A stretch of DNA of 64,000 nt, from positions 2,576 through 66,575 of the forward strand of contig DATGGA010000025.1 in assembly GCA_035308765.1 (NCBI GenBank), given 5' to 3'. Source of the stretch: Burkholderiales bacterium (lineage in GTDB: Bacteria; Pseudomonadota; Gammaproteobacteria; Burkholderiales; SG8-39). Within the stretch, counting starts at the first letter, position 1, and every line of letters begins with the position of its first letter. Shown piece after piece: positions 18,218-26,727 of the stretch. A program made the position numbers and the translations under genes. The notes below the pieces were generated by a model, which worked only from the letters and a program-made list of their open reading frames with translations, did not search any database and had not been told where the DNA came from.

Positions 18218-18628
18218 ATGCGCCGCCCAAGGGAGAGGGGATTCACCCTCATCGAAGTTATGATCACCGTCGTCATCGTCGGCATTCTTGCCGCGATCGC
18301 GTTGCCGTCGTACAACCAGTACCTCACCAAGTCGCGCCGCTCCGAGGCGCAGCAGTTGATGACGCAGATCTCCTCGCAGCAGGCGCAGTATCTCTTCGAC
18401 GCGAGGAGCTACACCGCGACGCTCGGTCCGAGCGGCCTGAACATGGCCCGCTCCAACTGGACGTGCACCACCAACTGCGTCGGCCAGTACTACACGGTCT
18501 CGATTTCTACCCTCACCAACACCGCGACCCCTCCGTATTACCAGATAACGGCGACGCCGAGCGGCTCCCAGATTCCGGACGGCAACCTCACGCTCGACAG
18601 CGTCGGCGCGAAGACCGGCACCTGGTAG
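18218..18628 (+). CDS. pilE: type IV pilin, PilE-like
   Basis: 136 aa. The prepilin leader and cleavage motif is [45 protein letters not shown] is present. Confidence 0.85.
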
Positions 18629-18633
18629 GCGAC

Positions 18634-19122
18634 ATGGAGCGCGGATTCACCCTCATCGAAGTGATGGTCACCGTGGCGATAGTCGCGGTGCTCGCAAGTT
18701 TCGCGCTGCCGGGAGTGCGCGACTACCTCGCCACCGGCGCGATCCGCGCGGCCAGTTCTGACTACTACGCGGCACTGCTCGCGGCGCGCTCGGAAGCGAT
18801 CAAGCGGCGCACCAATGCGGTTGTCGCGCCCATTGGAACCACCTGGAACACCGGCTGGACGGTCACGGTGGGCGGCAACCTGTTCCAGCAGGCCGACGCG
18901 CTGCGGCCCGACATCTCAGTGCAGGTGAACGTCCCGGCATCCGCCACCACGACGCCGGTGACCTACGGGTCGAACGGCCGCGTGAGTTCAGGCGCGCAGA
19001 TGGTCATTTTTTATTCGCCCACGCAAACCAGGATATTCGCGCGCTGCGTGAGCGTCGACACCAACGGCCTGCCGCGCGTGCGGATCGCCAACACCAATGT
19101 AGCGACCAATGGCTGCACCTGA
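18634..19122 (+). CDS. fimT: GspH/FimT family minor pseudopilin
   Basis: Internal ATG: [32 protein letters not shown]...RSEAIKRRTN, with the FimT/FimU-type C-terminal domain. Confidence 0.8.
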   Translation: MERGFTLIEVMVTVAIVAVLASFALPGVRDYLATGAIRAASSDYYAALLAARSEAIKRRTNAVVAPIGTTWNTGWTVTVGGNLFQQADALRPDISVQVNVPASATTTPVTYGSNGRVSSGAQMVIFYSPTQTRIFARCVSVDTNGLPRVRIANTNVATNGCT

Positions 19123-19756
19123 GAGAACAACACGCGGGCGCTCCTCGCAAGCGGGCTTCTCGCTGATCGAGATCCTGGTCGCGCTGCTGATCCTGACGGT
19201 CGGCCTGCTCGGGCTCGCCGGGATGCAGGCGGTGGCCCAGCGCTCCGAGGTCGAGTCCTACCAGCGCGCCCAGGCAATGGTGCTCATGAACGACATCCTC
19301 GACCGCATTAACGCCAATCGCAAGGCAGCCGCCTGCTACGCGATCACGACGGACTTTACCAATGGCGTGCCGTATGTCGGCACCAGCGGCTCCGGCCAAT
19401 ACAGCACCGGCGGCTACTCCTGCCCTTCGCTCGCCAGCAATCCGAACGCGGCTTCGCGCGCCGGCATTGACCTGCAGCTCATCGAGCAGGCGATGCTCGG
19501 CGCGAGCGAAACCCTGGGCAGCGCCAGCGTCGGTGCGCTGCTCGGCGCGCGCGCCTGCATCGGTTTCGACAGCGCGGCGCAGGCCTACACCGTCGCGATT
19601 GCCTGGCAGGGCCAGTCGCAAACGTTTTCGCCGGCCTCCTGGGCGGCGGGCAACAACCCGGCGGTTGCGCGCAACTGCGCGCTCAACCTGTACGGCACCG
19701 ACACCCAGCGCCGCGTAATCTGGACCACGCTGATGGTCGCCTCCCTGAGCAGCTGA
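19109..19756 (+). CDS. pilV: type IV pilus modification protein PilV
   Basis: QAG/FSLIEILVALLILTVGLLGLAGMQ is the PilV hallmark. Confidence 0.85.
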   Translation: MAAPERTTRGRSSQAGFSLIEILVALLILTVGLLGLAGMQAVAQRSEVESYQRAQAMVLMNDILDRINANRKAAACYAITTDFTNGVPYVGTSGSGQYSTGGYSCPSLASNPNAASRAGIDLQLIEQAMLGASETLGSASVGALLGARACIGFDSAAQAYTVAIAWQGQSQTFSPASWAAGNNPAVARNCALNLYGTDTQRRVIWTTLMVASLSS

Positions 19757-19760
19757 CGCT

Positions 19761-20942
19761 ATGGTATCGACGATGGGCACCCGCAGCGCCCAGGCCGGCC
19801 TCTCGATCGTCGAGTTGATGGTTGCCATCACCATCGGCCTGCTGCTTCTGGCGGGGCTCGCCTCGATGTTCGGAAGCTCCAGCCGATCGCAGAACGAACT
19901 GCGGCGGGCGGCGGAGCAGATAGAGAACGGCCGCTACGCCATGGACACGATGACGCAGGACTTGCAGCTCGCCGGCTACTTCGGTCAGAACCGCGTCACC
20001 AGCACGCCGCCGACGTCGATGCCCGATCCCTGTACGCTGACGATAGCGAACATGACCACGGCGGTCGCGATCGGAGTGCAGGGATACAGCTCGGGCGGAC
20101 TGAGCAGCAGGCCCGCGCTTCCGGCAAGTTGCGCCACCTGGTTGCCCAACGCAAACCTCTCCAAGGGCAGCGACGTCGTCATCGTGTACCGCACGAACAC
20201 CAGTTATCTGCCGATCGGGACGGCCACGACCGCAGGCCAGTTGTACGTCCAGACCAACCCGGCGACATTCACAGTGCAGAACGGCGGCGGCACCACCAGC
20301 TGCACCAGCGGCGCGGACGGCAGCGCCTCGTCCATCACCCGCCGCTGCCTCACCCCCAACACCCTGCCCGACGAAATCTGCTCCTCGCTCTGTCCCGGCG
20401 GCTCGCCGGTTGGGTACATCCGCCAGCTCGTGGTGCACATATATTTTGTCGCGCCCTGCAACGTGCCCACCGGCGGCGGCAGCATCTGCACTGGCACGAC
20501 TGATGACGGCGGCACGCGCATTCCGACCCTGAAGCGCCTGGAGCTGACCGCATCCGGCGGCGCGGCCACATTCCAGATCACATCGATCGCGGAAGGCGTG
20601 GAATTCATGAAAGTCGAATATGGCATCGACGACACGCCTTCGGCTGTGAACACGCAGACCGGTCTGGTCGGCGACGGCGCCACCGACCGGTATGTGCTGG
20701 CGCCGGCATTGTCAGACCTGACGAACGCGGTGACCGTGCGGGTCGACTTGCTCGTACGTAACCCCGAGCCCTCGATCGGTTACACCGACTCGAAGACCTA
20801 CAACCTGGGCGTCAACCCGGCCCTCCCCACGAGCCCGGCCGTCACCGTCACTTCAGTGAACTACGCCCCCACCTATCGGCGTCATGTCTACAGCTCGGAA
20901 ATCCGGCTGGTCAACCTGAGCAGCCGCAAGGAGAATCCGTGA
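19761..20942 (+). CDS. pilW: type IV pilus assembly protein PilW
   Basis: QAG/LSIVELMVAITIGLLLLAGLASMF...ENGRYAMDTMTQDLQLAGY. Length is 393 aa. Confidence 0.85.
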   Translation: MVSTMGTRSAQAGLSIVELMVAITIGLLLLAGLASMFGSSSRSQNELRRAAEQIENGRYAMDTMTQDLQLAGYFGQNRVTSTPPTSMPDPCTLTIANMTTAVAIGVQGYSSGGLSSRPALPASCATWLPNANLSKGSDVVIVYRTNTSYLPIGTATTAGQLYVQTNPATFTVQNGGGTTSCTSGADGSASSITRRCLTPNTLPDEICSSLCPGGSPVGYIRQLVVHIYFVAPCNVPTGGGSICTGTTDDGGTRIPTLKRLELTASGGAATFQITSIAEGVEFMKVEYGIDDTPSAVNTQTGLVGDGATDRYVLAPALSDLTNAVTVRVDLLVRNPEPSIGYTDSKTYNLGVNPALPTSPAVTVTSVNYAPTYRRHVYSSEIRLVNLSSRKENP

Positions 20943-21451
20943 GTCGCGGGCTTCGCGCGCAGCGCGGGATGACGCTGCTGATCGCGCTCATCATGCTGAT
21001 CGTGATGACGATGTTCGTGGTGTCGATGGTGAAGATCGGCAACACCAACACCACCATCGTCAGCAATATGCGCGCCCAGAAATCGGTCGATACCGAAGCG
21101 CAGCAGCAGATCGAGATCGCGATCAACAGGTACCAGTTCTTCAGCGACGTCATCGGCGGCGCCGGGGGCTGGGCGAGCGCCCCGACGTACCTGACCGCAG
21201 CCCAGCTGTGGGCGACCTACGCGCCGCCTGGCGCGAGCACCGAGACCGCGACGCAGTCCAACGACCTCAGGCTCTACCGCCCGCAATGCAACTATGCCGC
21301 GCCGGCCAGCGGCTACAGCGCCCTCTCCGGCGTCGCGCCGCAGGACACGTACTGGGACATCGAGGCGACGGCGAGCGACTCGACAACCGGCGCCTCGACC
21401 GAAATCCACCAGGGCATCTGGATGCGGCTGCCCGCCGGCAATTGCAATTAG
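20939..21451 (+). CDS. pilX: PilX-like minor pilin
   Basis: GTG start in a GTGA overlap with the pilW stop. QRGMTLLIALIMLIVMTMFVVS has the PilX_N-type hydrophobic N-terminus. The position between pilW and pilY1 fits. Confidence 0.75.
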   Translation: MSRGLRAQRGMTLLIALIMLIVMTMFVVSMVKIGNTNTTIVSNMRAQKSVDTEAQQQIEIAINRYQFFSDVIGGAGGWASAPTYLTAAQLWATYAPPGASTETATQSNDLRLYRPQCNYAAPASGYSALSGVAPQDTYWDIEATASDSTTGASTEIHQGIWMRLPAGNCN

Positions 21452-21474
21452 GAACAAATGAATCTGGAGCAATC

Positions 21475-24400
21475 ATGAAAGTATTCCAACAAAACCTGAT
21501 GACAGCGCTGCTCGCCTTCCTGTTGACGGCCGCGACCGTGCCGGCCTTGGCGGCGGGCGTCGACCTCGTGGGAGACGACACGGACCTGTTCACGACGAAT
21601 CCAAGCATCCCGGCGGAGGTTCCGAACGTCCTGGTCGTCCTGGACAATACCTCTAACTGGTCGCAGCAGGCGCAGCAATGGCCTGCGACTCTCGATCCAG
21701 CCTGCGTGAGCGCGGGGATGACCGGCACCGCCCAAGGTGATGCCGAGATCTGCGCAATTTTCCTTACCATCCAGAATCTGACGTCGTCGGTGAACGTGGG
21801 CCTGATGATGTTCGACGATCAAAACAAGGGCGCATACGTCCGTTTTCCGATGGGTTCCATGACGCCGGCCAATATCGCGACGTTCAAGTCGATCTTGGTC
21901 AACATCAGTACCAACAATCCGGGCGACAAGACCAGCTCGAACACGGCGTACGAGAACCCGATGAACGACGTGTTCCGTTACTTCAACAGCCTGGCGACCT
22001 TAACGCAAAACGCAGCGCCCACGCCGCAGGCGAACGTCGGCGGCTACACCGATTCGACGATGAATAACTTCAGCTTTCTCCCCGGACAGAGCGGCGATAC
22101 CTGCGGTTTCGACTACATCATCTTCATCGGCAACGGCTTTCCAAACGCCGGCAGCCTCACGCCCGACATGGCCACTGCCTCCGGGTTGCTAAACGACTCG
22201 GCGAATATCGTCCTGAACACGACGCCGATCCAGAACACCGGCAGCAACGCCGACGTATGGTCGCGTTTTCTCTTTCAGTACGGGGTCAAAGTGGGTGCCG
22301 GCGCCTACCGCCATGTCACGACCTACACGATCAACGTCTGCAACGCCAAATGCACGGCAAACCAGACGGCCTTGAACCAGATCACGCTGCTGCAAAGCAT
22401 GGCCACCGTGAGCCAGGGCAAGTATTTTCTCGCCACGAGTATCGGCGCGATCGAATCCGCTCTAGCCAGTATTTTTGCGGAAGTGCAAGCGGTCAACAGC
22501 GTGTTCGCAGCAACGACGCTGCCGGTTTCGATCAACGTGCGCGGCACCAACCTGAACCAGGTGTACATCGGCGTGTTCCGGCCGGATCCGACCTCCAGCC
22601 CGCGCTGGTTCGGCAACCTGAAGCAGTATCAACTTGGCCTCAATGCCTCGACGAACTCCCTGCAGCTCGTCGACGCGACCGGCGCGCAAGCGGTGAACCT
22701 CAACACGGGATTCATCACGAACACGGCAACGAGCTTTTGGACGACCACCTATAACGCCCAGGGCACCACGCCGGCGCTGGGATTCTGGTCATTCCGCGGG
22801 CCAAGTTACGCCACCACGGATGTCGGCAAGGATCAGGACTCGCCGGATGGCGACCTCGTCGAGAAAGGCGGCGGCGCGGAAATGATCCGCATGACCTATC
22901 CCATGCCAGACTCGACCGCCGCGCAGACGCGCAACCTGTACACCTGCACCGGCTCCTGCGCCGCGGGAAGCACGCTGTCAAGCTATCTTTTCAATACCTC
23001 TAACTCCGATATCACCGCGGCGCTGCTGGGCACATTCCAAGCAATCAGCGTATCGTCGCTTAGCGCTTCGGGGACGACGGCCACCGCCGTAACGTCCGCG
23101 GCCCATGGATTTTCTGTCGGGAATGTCGTCACAATCGCCGGCGCCGTGCCCAATCTGTTCAACGGCAATTACACTATTGTCACCGTCCCGAACGCGACCA
23201 GCTTTACCTACACGCTTTCGTCTGCGCCGGATACGACGCACGCATACGTGACGCTGCCGGGATACACGCTCGTACCGGCCACGGATCTCGTCACGGTCTC
23301 TGGAGCGACGCCAACCGCCTACAACGTCGCCAGCACGGCAATTTCGGCGGTTGTCGGCAACGCGAACCAGTTCTCATACGTATTGGGTTCATCGCCGACA
23401 ACGGCGGCCAGCGGATATTCAGTTACGGGGATACGTCAAGTCCAGGTGTCAAGCGGGACGAGCAAGGTCACGTGGTCAAATGGCTCGGCGTTGAACAATG
23501 TAACGGTCTCTCTGGCCAACCACGGCTATAGCAGCGCCGATACGGTCGCCATCACAGGAGCAACGGACGCGGCCTTCAATACGGCCGGGTCGACAATCGT
23601 CAAGGTCGACAACAACACATTCACCTACACGACCGCGTCGACTCCCGCTGGCGGCACGACCACGACCGGAGTAGTGACTCTCACGGGCTCGCTGCCAAGC
23701 GGTTGGGGTAGCGGGACTGTAGTCAAGATTTCCGGCGTAACGAATCAGACGAACTACAACACTGCATCCACCGGCACCAGTATCTCGCATGTTTCCGGCA
23801 ATACGTTCCAGTACACCACCTCCGGAACCGTCGCCAGCGCTGCAAGCGGCACCATGGTCGCCAACCAGGTGGTCGCGAGCGATACCAGCACGTGGACGGT
23901 CAGCTCTGCCGCAGCGCAGAGCGTCACGGCGACGGCGAACCTCGACAGCACCTGGAACATAAGCAACGTCGTTGCGAGCGGCAGCGGCAGCAACCAAAAC
24001 CTGAGTATTACGCTAAACAAGGCGCAATTTACCGATGTCGTATCCGGCAAACCGAACGTTTTGAGGCAGCTACAGGTAGGCGACGCTATCAGCATCGCGG
24101 GAACCTGCACTTACAAAGTGGGGAGCGCTACCAATCAATGCAATGGGCTCAGCATCCTCTCGGTCAGCGGCAATACTGCAAACGCAACCAACCCCAATTC
24201 CACTTCCTTTACGAATCTCAACACCTCCGTCACGGTGGTCCTCTCCGTGGGCGCAAACATCGGCACGATAAGTTTCAGTGGCGCGACAATGTTGTACGCC
24301 GGCACGAGCAGCGCGACAGGCAATTTCGGCATCCGGTTCACGCTCAGCCGCGGCCAGTACTCCGGGCAGCTCCTGCACCAGCTCGCGCCGGGGGATTCGC

Positions 24401-26727
24401 TTGCCTTCGCGAACTGCTCGTATACGGCGGGCGGCGTGAGTAATATTTGTAGCGGCACCGTCGCGGCGGTGTCTGGAAATTCCAGTATCACGAACGCCCC
24501 TCCGGTCGCTGCCAACACCTACGCAGATATTACGGGCACGGTTACCGTCGATGTGGTTCAAAGCTCGCCCGGTGCGATCAGCGCGGTCACAACGACCAAC
24601 ACGGCAGCAGGCGTAGCGCCGCTCGGCACCGCAACTACACTGGCCTGGACCGGTCAAACCATCGGTGCAAATGTGGCGATCACATCCATTGTTCCCGGCC
24701 CATTGACGGTGCAAGCCGCCGGAACGATCTATGCGTCGAAGTCGGGCGATCTGACGAGCAAGGTGACCTCGATCGCCAACCAGTCGGTGGCGACCGGAAC
24801 CATTACCGCCGGCCTCGCCAGCAACCCCGATCCGAACGAGCGGGCAGAGCTTATCAACTGGGTGCGCGGCCAGGACAACAAGGACGACGAGAACATAAAC
24901 GGGATCTCCACGGACGTGCGCTCTTCCGTGCACGGCGACGTGCTGCATTCGCGGCCGGCGGTGGTCAACTACAACCGGTTCGGCGACAACAACGACGTCT
25001 ACATCTTCTACGGCTCCAACGATGGCCTGCTGCGCGCGATCAAGGGGGGCCAGGCGACCGACGGCACCGCGGGCCAGGAGCAATGGGCGTTCATCGCGCC
25101 GGAATTCTTCGGCAAGGTGAAGCGCCTGCGCAACCAGACGCCGGCGATCTCTTCCACCAGTCCCAAGGACTATTTCTTCGACGGGCCGATCGGGGTCTAT
25201 ACGCTCGATGCGAACAACGACGGCAAGCTCAATGCCGCGGACGGCGACAAGGTGTACCTGTTCCTGGCGATGCGCCGCGGCGGACGCATGGTCTACGCGC
25301 TCGACGTGACCAATCCGACCAGTCCCAAGCTGCTGTGGAAGCATGGCTGCACGAATCCCACCGGCACGGGAAGCACCGGCGGCTGCGACACCGGATGGGA
25401 CCAGCTTGGGCAAACCTGGTCCCAGCCGCAGTTGGCCTACCTGAACGCCTTTCCCACTACGCTCGCGCTCATTTTCGGGGCGGGCTACGACTCGCCGGCC
25501 GAGGATTTCCAGCCCTGCGTTGTTACCGCGTTCAATTCCGGCTCGGTCACCGGCTTGACGAATGTCGTCTTCCCGATCCCGATGACGACCGCCAACTGTC
25601 CGCCGACGGGCGGCACCAGCACGACGAACAACCGGACCATGGGCCGCGGCATATTCATCGTCAACGCCGCGACCGGGGCGATACTGCAGCGGATCGGCCC
25701 AGATTCGAGCGCCAACCTGCAAGTCACCGGGATGACTTACGCCATTCCGGCGGACCTGGCGATCCTCAAGAACCGCGCCAACACCAGCGCGCGCGCATCG
25801 TCGATCGGCACGGAAAGCGTCACGGCCGGCTACATCGACAGGATCTACGCACCGGACACCGGCGGCAACGTGTGGCGGATCGACGTATCGGATTCCAACA
25901 CCGCCAACTGGGTGGCGACGCAATTCGCCTCGATCGCGCCCGCGAGCGGCTCCTCGACGACGACCGGATCGCCGGCGGCGGCGAACATGCGCAAGCTCGA
26001 ATTCCAGTCCGACGTGGTCTACTCGAGCGACGCGAACGGCAGCTTCGACGCGGTGCTCGTGGGCAGCGGAGACCGCGAGCATCCCTTCGACCAGGTCGTT
26101 GCCAACCGCTTCTACATGTTGAAGGACCGCAATGTCGCCACCATCACGCCCGCGATGGTGACGCCGACGCCGCCGGCGACGATCACGGAGAGCGGCCTTT
26201 TCGACATCACCAACGGCTGCCTGCAAAGCGCGACTAACTGCACGGGATCGCAAACGCAAGCCACCGCGGCGGCTTCATTGCTGGGCGCTTCAGGATGGCT
26301 GATGCAGCTCGCCAACACCGGCGAGAAAACGATCGCGCCGGCCACGACGGCGAACGGCACGGTCATATTCAACACCAACCAGCCGAAACAGGACACGGTC
26401 ACCGGTACCGCGAACAACACGACGTCGGGCGCGGGCAATTCCTGCGTTTCCGATCTCGGCACCGCCCGGCAGTACGGGGTGAGCTTCCTGAACGGCAACC
26501 CCTCGTATATCTACAACCAGCTGCCCTCGCAATACGTTCCCACGTCGGGCCTCGGCCGCTACGCCACCTTCGCCGGCGGCGGGTTCCTGCCGCAGCCGGT
26601 GCCTGCGGTCGTGCAGATCGGCGGCAAGTACTACCAGACGATAATTTCGGGCGTGACCACCACCAACCCGGGAGGCTTGTCGCTCCAGAATCGCGTGCGG
26701 ACTTACTGGTACAAGAAGGTGGATTGA
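21475..26727 (+). CDS. pilY1: type IV pilus tip adhesin / biogenesis factor PilY1, unusually long (1750 aa)
   Basis: Internal ATG of the 21208..26727 ORF gives the signal peptide MKVFQQNLMTALLAFLLTAATVPALAAG. The N-terminal part is vWA-like (VLVVLDNTSNWS). Conserved PilY1/PilC blocks are ELINWVRGQDN, HGDVLHSRPAVVNY, VYIFYGSNDGLLRAI, MRRGGRMVYALDVTNP and GQTWSQP. An EF-hand-like loop DANNDGKLN is present. Confidence 0.9.
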   Translation: MKVFQQNLMTALLAFLLTAATVPALAAGVDLVGDDTDLFTTNPSIPAEVPNVLVVLDNTSNWSQQAQQWPATLDPACVSAGMTGTAQGDAEICAIFLTIQNLTSSVNVGLMMFDDQNKGAYVRFPMGSMTPANIATFKSILVNISTNNPGDKTSSNTAYENPMNDVFRYFNSLATLTQNAAPTPQANVGGYTDSTMNNFSFLPGQSGDTCGFDYIIFIGNGFPNAGSLTPDMATASGLLNDSANIVLNTTPIQNTGSNADVWSRFLFQYGVKVGAGAYRHVTTYTINVCNAKCTANQTALNQITLLQSMATVSQGKYFLATSIGAIESALASIFAEVQAVNSVFAATTLPVSINVRGTNLNQVYIGVFRPDPTSSPRWFGNLKQYQLGLNASTNSLQLVDATGAQAVNLNTGFITNTATSFWTTTYNAQGTTPALGFWSFRGPSYATTDVGKDQDSPDGDLVEKGGGAEMIRMTYPMPDSTAAQTRNLYTCTGSCAAGSTLSSYLFNTSNSDITAALLGTFQAISVSSLSASGTTATAVTSAAHGFSVGNVVTIAGAVPNLFNGNYTIVTVPNATSFTYTLSSAPDTTHAYVTLPGYTLVPATDLVTVSGATPTAYNVASTAISAVVGNANQFSYVLGSSPTTAASGYSVTGIRQVQVSSGTSKVTWSNGSALNNVTVSLANHGYSSADTVAITGATDAAFNTAGSTIVKVDNNTFTYTTASTPAGGTTTTGVVTLTGSLPSGWGSGTVVKISGVTNQTNYNTASTGTSISHVSGNTFQYTTSGTVASAASGTMVANQVVASDTSTWTVSSAAAQSVTATANLDSTWNISNVVASGSGSNQNLSITLNKAQFTDVVSGKPNVLRQLQVGDAISIAGTCTYKVGSATNQCNGLSILSVSGNTANATNPNSTSFTNLNTSVTVVLSVGANIGTISFSGATMLYAGTSSATGNFGIRFTLSRGQYSGQLLHQLAPGDSLAFANCSYTAGGVSNICSGTVAAVSGNSSITNAPPVAANTYADITGTVTVDVVQSSPGAISAVTTTNTAAGVAPLGTATTLAWTGQTIGANVAITSIVPGPLTVQAAGTIYASKSGDLTSKVTSIANQSVATGTITAGLASNPDPNERAELINWVRGQDNKDDENINGISTDVRSSVHGDVLHSRPAVVNYNRFGDNNDVYIFYGSNDGLLRAIKGGQATDGTAGQEQWAFIAPEFFGKVKRLRNQTPAISSTSPKDYFFDGPIGVYTLDANNDGKLNAADGDKVYLFLAMRRGGRMVYALDVTNPTSPKLLWKHGCTNPTGTGSTGGCDTGWDQLGQTWSQPQLAYLNAFPTTLALIFGAGYDSPAEDFQPCVVTAFNSGSVTGLTNVVFPIPMTTANCPPTGGTSTTNNRTMGRGIFIVNAATGAILQRIGPDSSANLQVTGMTYAIPADLAILKNRANTSARASSIGTESVTAGYIDRIYAPDTGGNVWRIDVSDSNTANWVATQFASIAPASGSSTTTGSPAAANMRKLEFQSDVVYSSDANGSFDAVLVGSGDREHPFDQVVANRFYMLKDRNVATITPAMVTPTPPATITESGLFDITNGCLQSATNCTGSQTQATAAASLLGASGWLMQLANTGEKTIAPATTANGTVIFNTNQPKQDTVTGTANNTTSGAGNSCVSDLGTARQYGVSFLNGNPSYIYNQLPSQYVPTSGLGRYATFAGGGFLPQPVPAVVQIGGKYYQTIISGVTTTNPGGLSLQNRVRTYWYKKVD

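Follow-up and report, generated by a model that had tools for sequence, protein, structure and literature searches.

PilY1 is the adhesive, surface-sensing tip of type IV pili, and to our knowledge all that is known about it comes from proteins of about 1000-1500 amino acids (aa) of a few model species. A stretch of 64,000 nucleotides (nt) from a Burkholderiales bacterium (GenBank assembly GCA_035308765.1, contig DATGGA010000025.1, positions 2,576 to 66,575 of the forward strand; referred to as the window, whose numbering is used throughout) carries a pilY1 gene that encodes 1750 aa. A first-pass annotation, made from the DNA sequence without database searches, had proposed that a discrete insertion of about 600 aa separates the N-terminal region from the C-terminal propeller. 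The locus thus raises the question of whether the additional residues belong to a genuine PilY1, what they are related to, and what they might do at the tip of a pilus. As described below, the insertion appears to be a folded array of small beta domains, four of which are akin to domains of phage virion proteins; it is carried by many relatives and varies between them in a modular way.

Results

Identification of PilY1 and of the insertion

The main features of the gene are the following.

21208-26727, + strand: long open frame, with a plausible start at the ATG at 21475
21475..26727, + strand: pilY1 gene, 1750 aa plus stop (open frame and translation)
21475..21555, + strand: Sec-type signal peptide, aa 1-27, MKVFQQNLMTALLAFLLTAATVPALAA (recognized by eye, from the sequence alone)
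21556..23013, + strand: N-terminal domain, plausibly vWA-like, aa 28-513 (alignment to the N domains of homologues without the insert)
23014..24804, + strand: the insertion as a whole, aa ~514-1110 (run present only in the query in the alignment with 13 insert-less homologues)
24829..26724, + strand: C-terminal PilY1 beta-propeller, aa 1119-1750 (PF05567, 41.2 bits; homology to PDB 3HX6)

The C-terminal piece of the protein (aa 1117-1750, 634 aa) scored 41.2 bits with the Pfam family PF05567 (T4P_PilY1; cut-off 28.1) and matched the C-terminal domain of Pseudomonas aeruginosa PilY1 (PDB 3HX6) with E=4.2e-5 in phmmer. With a profile built from the window protein and the 13 insert-less homologues the E-value for 3HX6 was 3.7e-12, and PF05567 was matched by 12 of these 13 homologues (best E 5.5e-15). 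Because the family score is above the cut-off, 3HX6 is matched and a minor-pilin operon lies directly upstream (see below), we predict that the gene specifies a true PilY1, the tip protein of type IV pili; these findings and the translation of 21475-26727 agree with the 1750-aa PilY1 of the first-pass annotation. The source genome, a metagenome-assembled genome (MAG) of 104 contigs, contains one single match to the PilY1 protein.

The protein has in common with P. aeruginosa PilY1 (PA4554, 3HX6) and with neisserial PilC the PF05567 propeller, the HGDVLHSRP-type entry motif, the EF-hand-like DxNxDGxxN loop, the signal peptide, an N region that is plausibly vWA-like, and the position of the gene directly after fimU/pilV/pilW/pilX-type genes. 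It differs from them by about 600 extra residues at the junction of the N and C domains, and by the Pfam match of its propeller, which is weak and disappears in a scan of the full-length protein. Following the first-pass annotation, we take P. aeruginosa PilY1 to be about 1160 aa and neisserial PilC about 1000-1050 aa long. These lengths fit the 570-residue C-terminal fragment in 3HX6 and a 2026 survey of PilY1 proteins (PMC13190605).

The N region had been described as vWA-like. Weak matches to VWA_2 in 7 of the 13 insert-less homologues (best E 5.6e-4) speak for this description, whereas the N domain of the window protein itself gave no match in Pfam and no sequence match in PDB; the label is plausible but weakly supported. 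A candidate metal-ion-dependent adhesion site (MIDAS) motif in this domain reads D-N-T-S-N, as compared with DxSxS. A vWA domain with a MIDAS motif is not universal in PilY1; roughly one in three published members has it. In the propeller, an EF-hand-like loop (DANNDGKLNAADGD, 25207-25248) is located where the calcium site of PilY1 sits, and two of the insert-less homologues weakly matched EF-hand_5.

The insertion was delimited with a set comprising the best 120 of 459 homologues. Thirteen of the 120 (1034-1176 aa) are insert-less: only 2-8 residues separate their counterparts of the window protein's N and C domains, in agreement with the proposed discrete insertion. In the multiple alignment the run present only in the query is flanked by ...FNTSNSDI and TAGLASNPDPNER..., where the short proteins read ...PFDTxNxxI-TxAALGxxxxxER. 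The landmarks cited in the first-pass annotation were found on the two sides of this run (NLYTCTGSCAAGSTLSSYLFNTSN at aa 487-510, ELINWVRGQDN at aa 1125-1135 and HGDVLHSRP at aa 1153-1161). The other 107 homologues have 390-640 extra residues at a site identical to that of the window insert. Insert-less homologues from uncultured Burkholderiales-type betaproteobacteria (e.g. P0100, P0108 and P0119; 1034-1085 aa), which consist of N and C domains with 44-47% identity to the window protein, share with it the junction ...PF(D/N)TxNxxI / TxAALGxxxxxER..INWVRGQD, but the entire array is missing from them. The architecture of the insert is not an assembly artefact, since four metagenome proteins, each assembled independently, align over 99-100% of the query length with 59-64% identity.

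The composition of the insert is as biased as had been claimed: over aa 523-1116 (23041-24822) T, S, A, V, G and N account for 72% of the residues and only 4.2% are charged, compared with 10.2% in the N and 14.3% in the C part flanking it. The guanine plus cytosine content is 0.58-0.61 over 22000-24500 (end of the N domain and insert) and 0.64-0.69 in the flanks, a dip that probably results from the T/S/N-rich composition rather than from foreign origin. Tandem Repeats Finder detected no tandem repeat in the DNA except a 15-nt run of a 6-nt unit. As the repeats described below are visible at the protein level alone and the DNA keeps no tandem-repeat signal, the duplications of the units must be old.

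The two edges of the insert carry similar peptides, DITAALLGTF (23005-23034, aa 511-520) and TITAGLAS (24793-24816, aa 1107-1114), and the insert-less homologues have one single I-T-x-A-A-L-G at the junction. The peptides could be a trace that the insertion event left in the protein, or reflect ambiguity of the alignment.

Whole-protein scans are a poor guide to genes of this kind. A Pfam scan of the 1750-aa protein gave nothing significant, PF05567 included, although 41 bits are reached when the C-terminal 634 aa are scanned by themselves, and a scan against NCBIfam yielded no match. Precomputed Pfam matches are lacking for 94 of the 120 homologues in the set, and the NCBI/nr names shown mostly read 'hypothetical protein'. 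Annotation looks to have a systematic blind spot for PilY1 proteins that are long and biased in composition: the propeller goes undetected when Pfam is run on the whole protein, which explains why many such genes are labelled 'hypothetical'. Proteins of this architecture are plentiful in sequence databases and are already called PilY1 by some sources.

Domain composition and predicted fold of the insertion

The structure of aa 501-1143 was predicted with AlphaFold2 from an alignment of 20 homologous inserts, and repeat units were scored with hidden Markov models (HMMs). According to the model, the insert consists of eight consecutive beta-rich elements: four units of one kind (T1, about 65 aa each), a hairpin, two domains of a second kind (T2, about 100 aa each) and a connector (Z). 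In the list, percentages are hhalign probabilities, and pLDDT stands for the predicted local distance difference test.

23047..23238, + strand: T1 unit 1, aa 525-588 (unit HMM E=1.4e-18; hhalign to units 2-4, 90-98%)
23227..23424, + strand: T1 unit 2, aa 585-650, degenerate, without the HG motif (unit HMM E=3.8e-18; hhalign 85-96%)
23455..23667, + strand: T1 unit 3, aa 661-731 (unit HMM E=7.3e-19)
23647..23859, + strand: T1 unit 4, aa 725-795 (unit HMM E=7.9e-17; hhalign 85-98%)
23860..23991, + strand: long beta-hairpin linker, aa 796-839 (AlphaFold2 strands at model residues 292-317 and 325-335, pLDDT 71-95)
23995..24306, + strand: T2a, aa 841-944, with Cys878/Cys889 (T2 HMM E=7.1e-24; hhalign to T2b, 97.5%)
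24325..24609, + strand: T2b, aa 951-1045, with Cys981/Cys992 (T2 HMM E=4.3e-27)
24622..24828, + strand: Z connector domain, aa 1050-1118 (Z HMM E=8.4e-33; AlphaFold2 pLDDT ~90)

Two kinds of internal repeats had been reported from inspection, and both were supported by Smith-Waterman alignment controlled with composition-preserving shuffles (n=500) and by profile-profile comparison. The T1 pairs U1-U2, U1-U3, U2-U3, U2-U4 and U3-U4 and the T2 pair A-B scored z = 5.7-9.1, with 0 of 500 shuffles as high; the U1-U4 pair was weaker (z = 2.2, 17 of 500 shuffles as high) and reached 97% in hhalign. With slices of a 21-sequence alignment as input, hhalign gave probabilities of 85-98% among the four T1 units and 97.5% for T2a against T2b. 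No relation was found between T1 and T2 (best probability 2.3%), and the idea that T2 is an elaborated T1 was dropped for this reason; the hairpin and Z were likewise unrelated to T1 or T2. BLASTP of the insert against itself returned the identity match alone, and a permissive jackhmmer search started from one unit was discarded, as it drifted into compositional matches across the whole protein.

The AlphaFold check suggested by the first-pass annotation predicts a folded repeat array rather than unstructured filler. The mean pLDDT of the model was 86.3 (≥70 for 576 of 643 residues), and the predicted template modelling score (pTM) was 0.55. The model is all beta except for the helix that opens the C domain, and confidence falls only at inter-domain linkers. 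Each T1 unit contains 3-5 DSSP strand segments with pLDDT ~85-95, and T2b modelled alone with 33 relatives in the alignment had a pLDDT of 81.4. The insert has exactly four cysteines, which form two C-x10-C pairs (878/889 and 981/992). Neither cysteine position varies among 34 aligned T2 domains, and in both AlphaFold2 models the members of each pair are directly opposed on a hairpin with a two-residue turn; a cross-strand disulfide in each T2 domain is the natural reading of this predicted geometry. The insert has residues that are invariant across 21-37 aligned sequences, and the T1 units occupy orthologous positions across homologues.

Relatives of the inserted domains

The T1 half of the insert (aa 523-795) matched the phage family phrog_9998 with E=5.8e-13, the best stretch being aa 526-590, i.e. 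unit 1. Further matches were to phrog_5838 (8.5e-8), phrog_701 (1e-6) and phrog_19630 (3.7e-4), and all four families are annotated as 'virion structural protein'. Within Pfam, the window insert showed a sub-threshold match to E1_FCCH (PF16190) at aa 731-780, over the boundary of units 3 and 4, and no match to PF12195 (End_beta_barrel). A T1 profile of 37 sequences aligned over the whole unit with the beta-barrel of the phi92 endosialidase (E=0.0026) and gave E=0.054 with the K1F endosialidase; its match to an E1 enzyme, at the FCCH position of the latter, was weaker still.

When the whole-insert profile was searched against 1.84 billion representative proteins, 4932 were found at E≤1e-3, 80 of them at ≤1e-30. 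Among the best 150 matches 144 were newly retrieved, and 37 of these had PilY1 N and/or C domains. The other 107 were proteins of 170-6564 aa with 2-19 T1 units and without PilY1 domains. In a sample of ten of the latter, eight matched E1_FCCH (six above the Pfam cut-off), two had sub-threshold End_beta_barrel matches, and all ten matched phage virion, tail or amidase families of PHROG. The E1_FCCH scores of proteins found by the profile reached 61.2 bits (P0127) and 53.2 bits (P0142).

Structure comparison of the insert model with Foldseek gave 62 matches at E≤1e-3 among predicted phage proteins (fibre, baseplate and virion), and nothing at E≤1e-3 in PDB when the whole model was used as query. 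The matches in PDB were local only; the cleanest, to UBA1 FCCH, had modest values (probability 0.75-0.92, 21-23% identity, root mean square deviation 3.7-4.4 Å) with an E-value of about 1, because the query has many domains. Judged by sequence comparison, the T1 units appear to be akin to the endosialidase beta-barrel/E1-FCCH domain of phage virion proteins, and the PHROG matches are best regarded as domain sharing, not as evidence that the gene is of phage origin.

With the phage endosialidase barrel (PF12195; 4HIZ, 1V0E) and UBA1 FCCH (PF16190) the T1 units share the motif H-G-x-x-x-G-D-x-V-x-I-x-G...Y-N-G...F-x-Y. In endosialidase the barrel is a single domain inside an enzyme, whereas in the window protein four units, all below the Pfam cut-off, stand in tandem in a bacterial pilus adhesin. 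In the phage virion and tail proteins (phrog_9998, 5838, 19630 and 701) T1-type units are also arranged in tandem, in 3-19 copies, and exposed on an extracellular filament, but the carrier protein and the context are different, and T2 and Z have no PHROG counterpart.

The top PDB match of the T1 profile, BurrH (PDB 4CJA, E=2.8e-11), was rejected as spurious, because its E-value sums twelve matches of 14-19 residues, each insignificant alone, in an alpha-helical repeat similar to that of transcription activator-like effectors. The T1 core motif HG(F/Y)SxGDxVxIxG (e.g. at 23104-23142) coincides with the BurrH repeat motif HGFSxxDIVKIAG, which makes it a trap for automated annotation.

The second half of the insert stands apart. 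The T2/Z half had no match among PHROGs, the isolated T2b model had no significant fold match in PDB by Foldseek (best E=0.18), and a word-indexed search with the T2 region found, among the matches listed, three other PilY1 proteins alone.

Distribution and evolution of the insertion

Scoring of the 120 homologues with the unit HMMs gave the following classes.

No insert: 13/120
3-7 T1 units only: 71/120
Mixed type of the window (T1 + T2 + Z): 36/120
Both T2 copies, window included: 7/120, within the mixed type

The mixed architecture consists of four T1 units, one or two T2 domains and Z; T2a is confined to 7 of the 120 homologues, and Z is found only ever with the T2 type. The T1-only long proteins (among them G008, G017, G018 and G027) have the same T1 unit at the same insertion site, many of them with precomputed PF16190/PF12195 matches, but contain neither T2 nor Z. 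In the type represented by the window the distal T1 units are replaced by T2 and Z.

Variation extends to close relatives. Genomes of the same genus encode seven T1 units (G008, G017 and G018), four T1 units (G007), four T1 units with one T2 and Z (G023), or a junction without insert (G024), and a genome of the same order (G027) has seven T1 units. The alignment of orthologues that the first-pass annotation had asked for shows that the length does vary, with forms of 0, 4 or 7 T1 units, or 4 T1 + T2 + Z, in one genus. By contrast, the implied rarity of the long protein did not hold, and the finding that would have counted against it, relatives with the same length and domain content, was largely obtained: an insert is present in 107 of the 120 best homologues, and versions with 4-7 units occur within the genus.

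In the order at large, 201 well-assembled genomes were searched for PF05567 and 152 had a match. Among the 150 matches listed, which favour strong Pfam matches unlike those of the window's clade, 31 (~21%) were in frames at least 1500 aa long and 10 in frames at least 1700 aa long, the frames running from stop to stop and thus overestimating length. A scan of genome contigs with the insert found four loci only. Named carriers include Denitratisoma oestradiolicum (P0032, with four T1 units, one T2 and Z) and MAGs of Rhodocyclaceae, Burkholderiales and Betaproteobacteria.

In a quick maximum-likelihood tree of the C domain (midpoint root, support by the SH-like approximate likelihood ratio test only) a single branch separates the T2/Z type from the rest, and 34 of its 35 members fall into one clade with 99% support. 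The insert-less proteins occupy at least three separate positions and require at least three changes, so the array has been gained or lost repeatedly. The parts of the protein are not equally conserved: compared with the closest homologues, the N domain, the T1 array, Z (60-76%) and the C domain keep 60-77% identity, the hairpin 50-59%, and T2a/T2b 34-58% (34-45% for T2a). T2 is thus the least conserved part of the protein, and T2a is lowest.

One same-genus homologue, L023 (G024:C75:6000-11179), is lengthened in a different way. In its PilY1 frame of 1420 aa the N domain is enlarged by about 250 residues (query aa 254 corresponds to 304 and aa 249 to 549), and the junction has no insert.

The survey of published PilY1 proteins identified no conserved domains besides vWFA and DUF4114 and makes no mention of FCCH, lectin or immunoglobulin-like domains (PMC13190605), and none of the papers in the library searched contains both 'PilY1' and 'FCCH'. 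Judged from the homologues, the insert is an undescribed yet common variant in uncultured soil Burkholderiales, rather than a one-off.

Gene neighbourhood

The pilin and minor-pilin genes (18218..21451) lie directly upstream of pilY1 on the same strand.

18218-18628, + strand: pilE-like pilin, head of the operon (Pfam PF16732, ComP_DUS, 51.8 bits)
18637-19122, + strand: GspH/FimT-U-like gene (Pfam GspH)
19109-19756, + strand: pilV-like (Pfam N_methyl and Tt1218-like)
19761-20942, + strand: pilW (Pfam PilW, 66.7 bits)
20939-21451, + strand: open reading frame of 170 aa in the pilX position (by place in the operon; overlaps the pilW stop and ends 24 nt upstream of pilY1)

The frame in the pilX position had no Pfam match. 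ComP_DUS is the family of the neisserial minor pilin that acts as receptor for DNA uptake sequences. Downstream of pilY1, on the opposite strand, are ispH, lspA, ileS and ribF.

Discussion

Any proposal for the function of the array has to start from the site of the insertion, the homology of its repeats, their predicted fold, the kinship of T1 with phage virion domains and the modular variation between relatives. The propeller of PilY1 is placed on the minor-pilin complex, with the N-terminal domain outward (PMC13190605). Inserted at the hinge between the vWA-like head and the minor-pilin-docking propeller, a module of about 600 residues would form an extracellular stalk and hold the head at a distance from the pilus tip. 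Assuming about 2.5-3 nm per domain, such a stalk would be of the order of 15-25 nm if extended; an array in series would be expected to raise the head above the tip or else to form a lateral arm. The array could in addition offer extra binding surfaces, most likely for glycans, with the poorly conserved, copy-number-variable T2 setting specificity and the well-conserved T1 barrels and Z serving as scaffold. That the insertion changes reach or binding specificity, as the first-pass annotation expected, is plausible.

We put the probability that the array is a stalk with accessory binding modules, T2 being the specificity element, at roughly 0.55. This reading is drawn by analogy from the binding site and outward exposure of T1-kind domains in phages, and from the fast divergence and changing copy number of T2. 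The beta-barrel of the K1F endosialidase has a polysialic-acid binding site that discriminates hosts (PMC12632334), and the tail tubes of siphoviruses display FCCH domains on their outer side (PMC13576161). Because T2 has no recognizable relative, its putative binding role is argued from its variability.

Several observations weigh against this reading. The organism is an uncultured MAG, whose pilus is predicted from the genes. The best Pfam match of the insert, that to E1_FCCH, scores 17.2 bits, below the cut-off of 29.5, and the links of T1 to PDB entries are weak in E-value. For T2 the searches of PHROG, of PDB folds and with the T2 region gave no recognizable relative. The pTM of 0.55 leaves the arrangement of the domains in the model uncertain. 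Finally, the T1 units, conserved like the core domains and nearly uncharged, fit a passive scaffold and a lectin equally well.

The last point leads to the possible, though unlikely, case of a purely passive spacer, a rigid or semi-rigid stalk that binds no ligand and merely sets the distance between head and tip, e.g. to reach past capsule or extracellular polymeric substances. With 60-77% identity, the T1 array and Z resemble the core in conservation, and unit positions are orthologous; the number of T1 units steps from 3 to 7 across clades, as for a length ruler; and the composition is almost uncharged and T/S/A-rich. Yet the same kind of domain binds glycan in endosialidase (PMC12632334) and decorates phage virions, and T2 diverges much faster than the rest, which would not be required of a mere spacer. 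It is very unlikely that the array is instead a mechanical element, whose small beta domains, disulfide-clamped or not, stretch or unfold under retraction and so tune force transmission and surface sensing. Tandem small beta domains and cross-strand cysteine pairs are typical of force-bearing adhesins; the insert has such tandem domains and conserved pairs, and it is placed in line, with the adhesive head on one side and the pilin-docking propeller on the other. For P. aeruginosa PilY1, a role of the vWA domain in mechanosensing has been suggested (Webster et al. 2022, cited in PMC13190605). However, disulfides are predicted in the two T2 domains only, and the sequence does not tell a force-responsive array from a static stalk.

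The biased composition (72% T/S/A/V/G/N), the empty whole-protein Pfam scan and the 104 contigs of the MAG could make one think of non-functional filler, a low-complexity expansion, or an artefact of assembly or gene calling. This explanation is effectively refuted by the high confidence and all-beta fold of the model, the invariant residues across 21-37 aligned sequences, the homology of the units to Pfam and PHROG domains, and the recovery of the architecture independently in many metagenomes and genomes.

A bolder extension of the reading as stalk with accessory binding modules, in which T2 represents a previously unrecognized fold family acting as a hypervariable, ligand-specific warhead of pilus tips in soil Burkholderiales and T1 is exchanged with phage tail and virion proteins, is distinctly unlikely. 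If it were true, the two kinds of protein would co-diversify, and pilus-tip adhesins and phage receptor-binding proteins would draw their adhesion modules from one pool.

For the PilY1 family, the finding means that a large, mostly uncultured group of betaproteobacteria places a modular array at the hinge between head and propeller, and that this array varies between close relatives. Its 3-7 phage-like barrels, or four barrels with one or two apparently disulfide-pinned domains, are defined modules with which reach may be distinguished from specificity, and they link the tips of pili to the domains that decorate phage virions.

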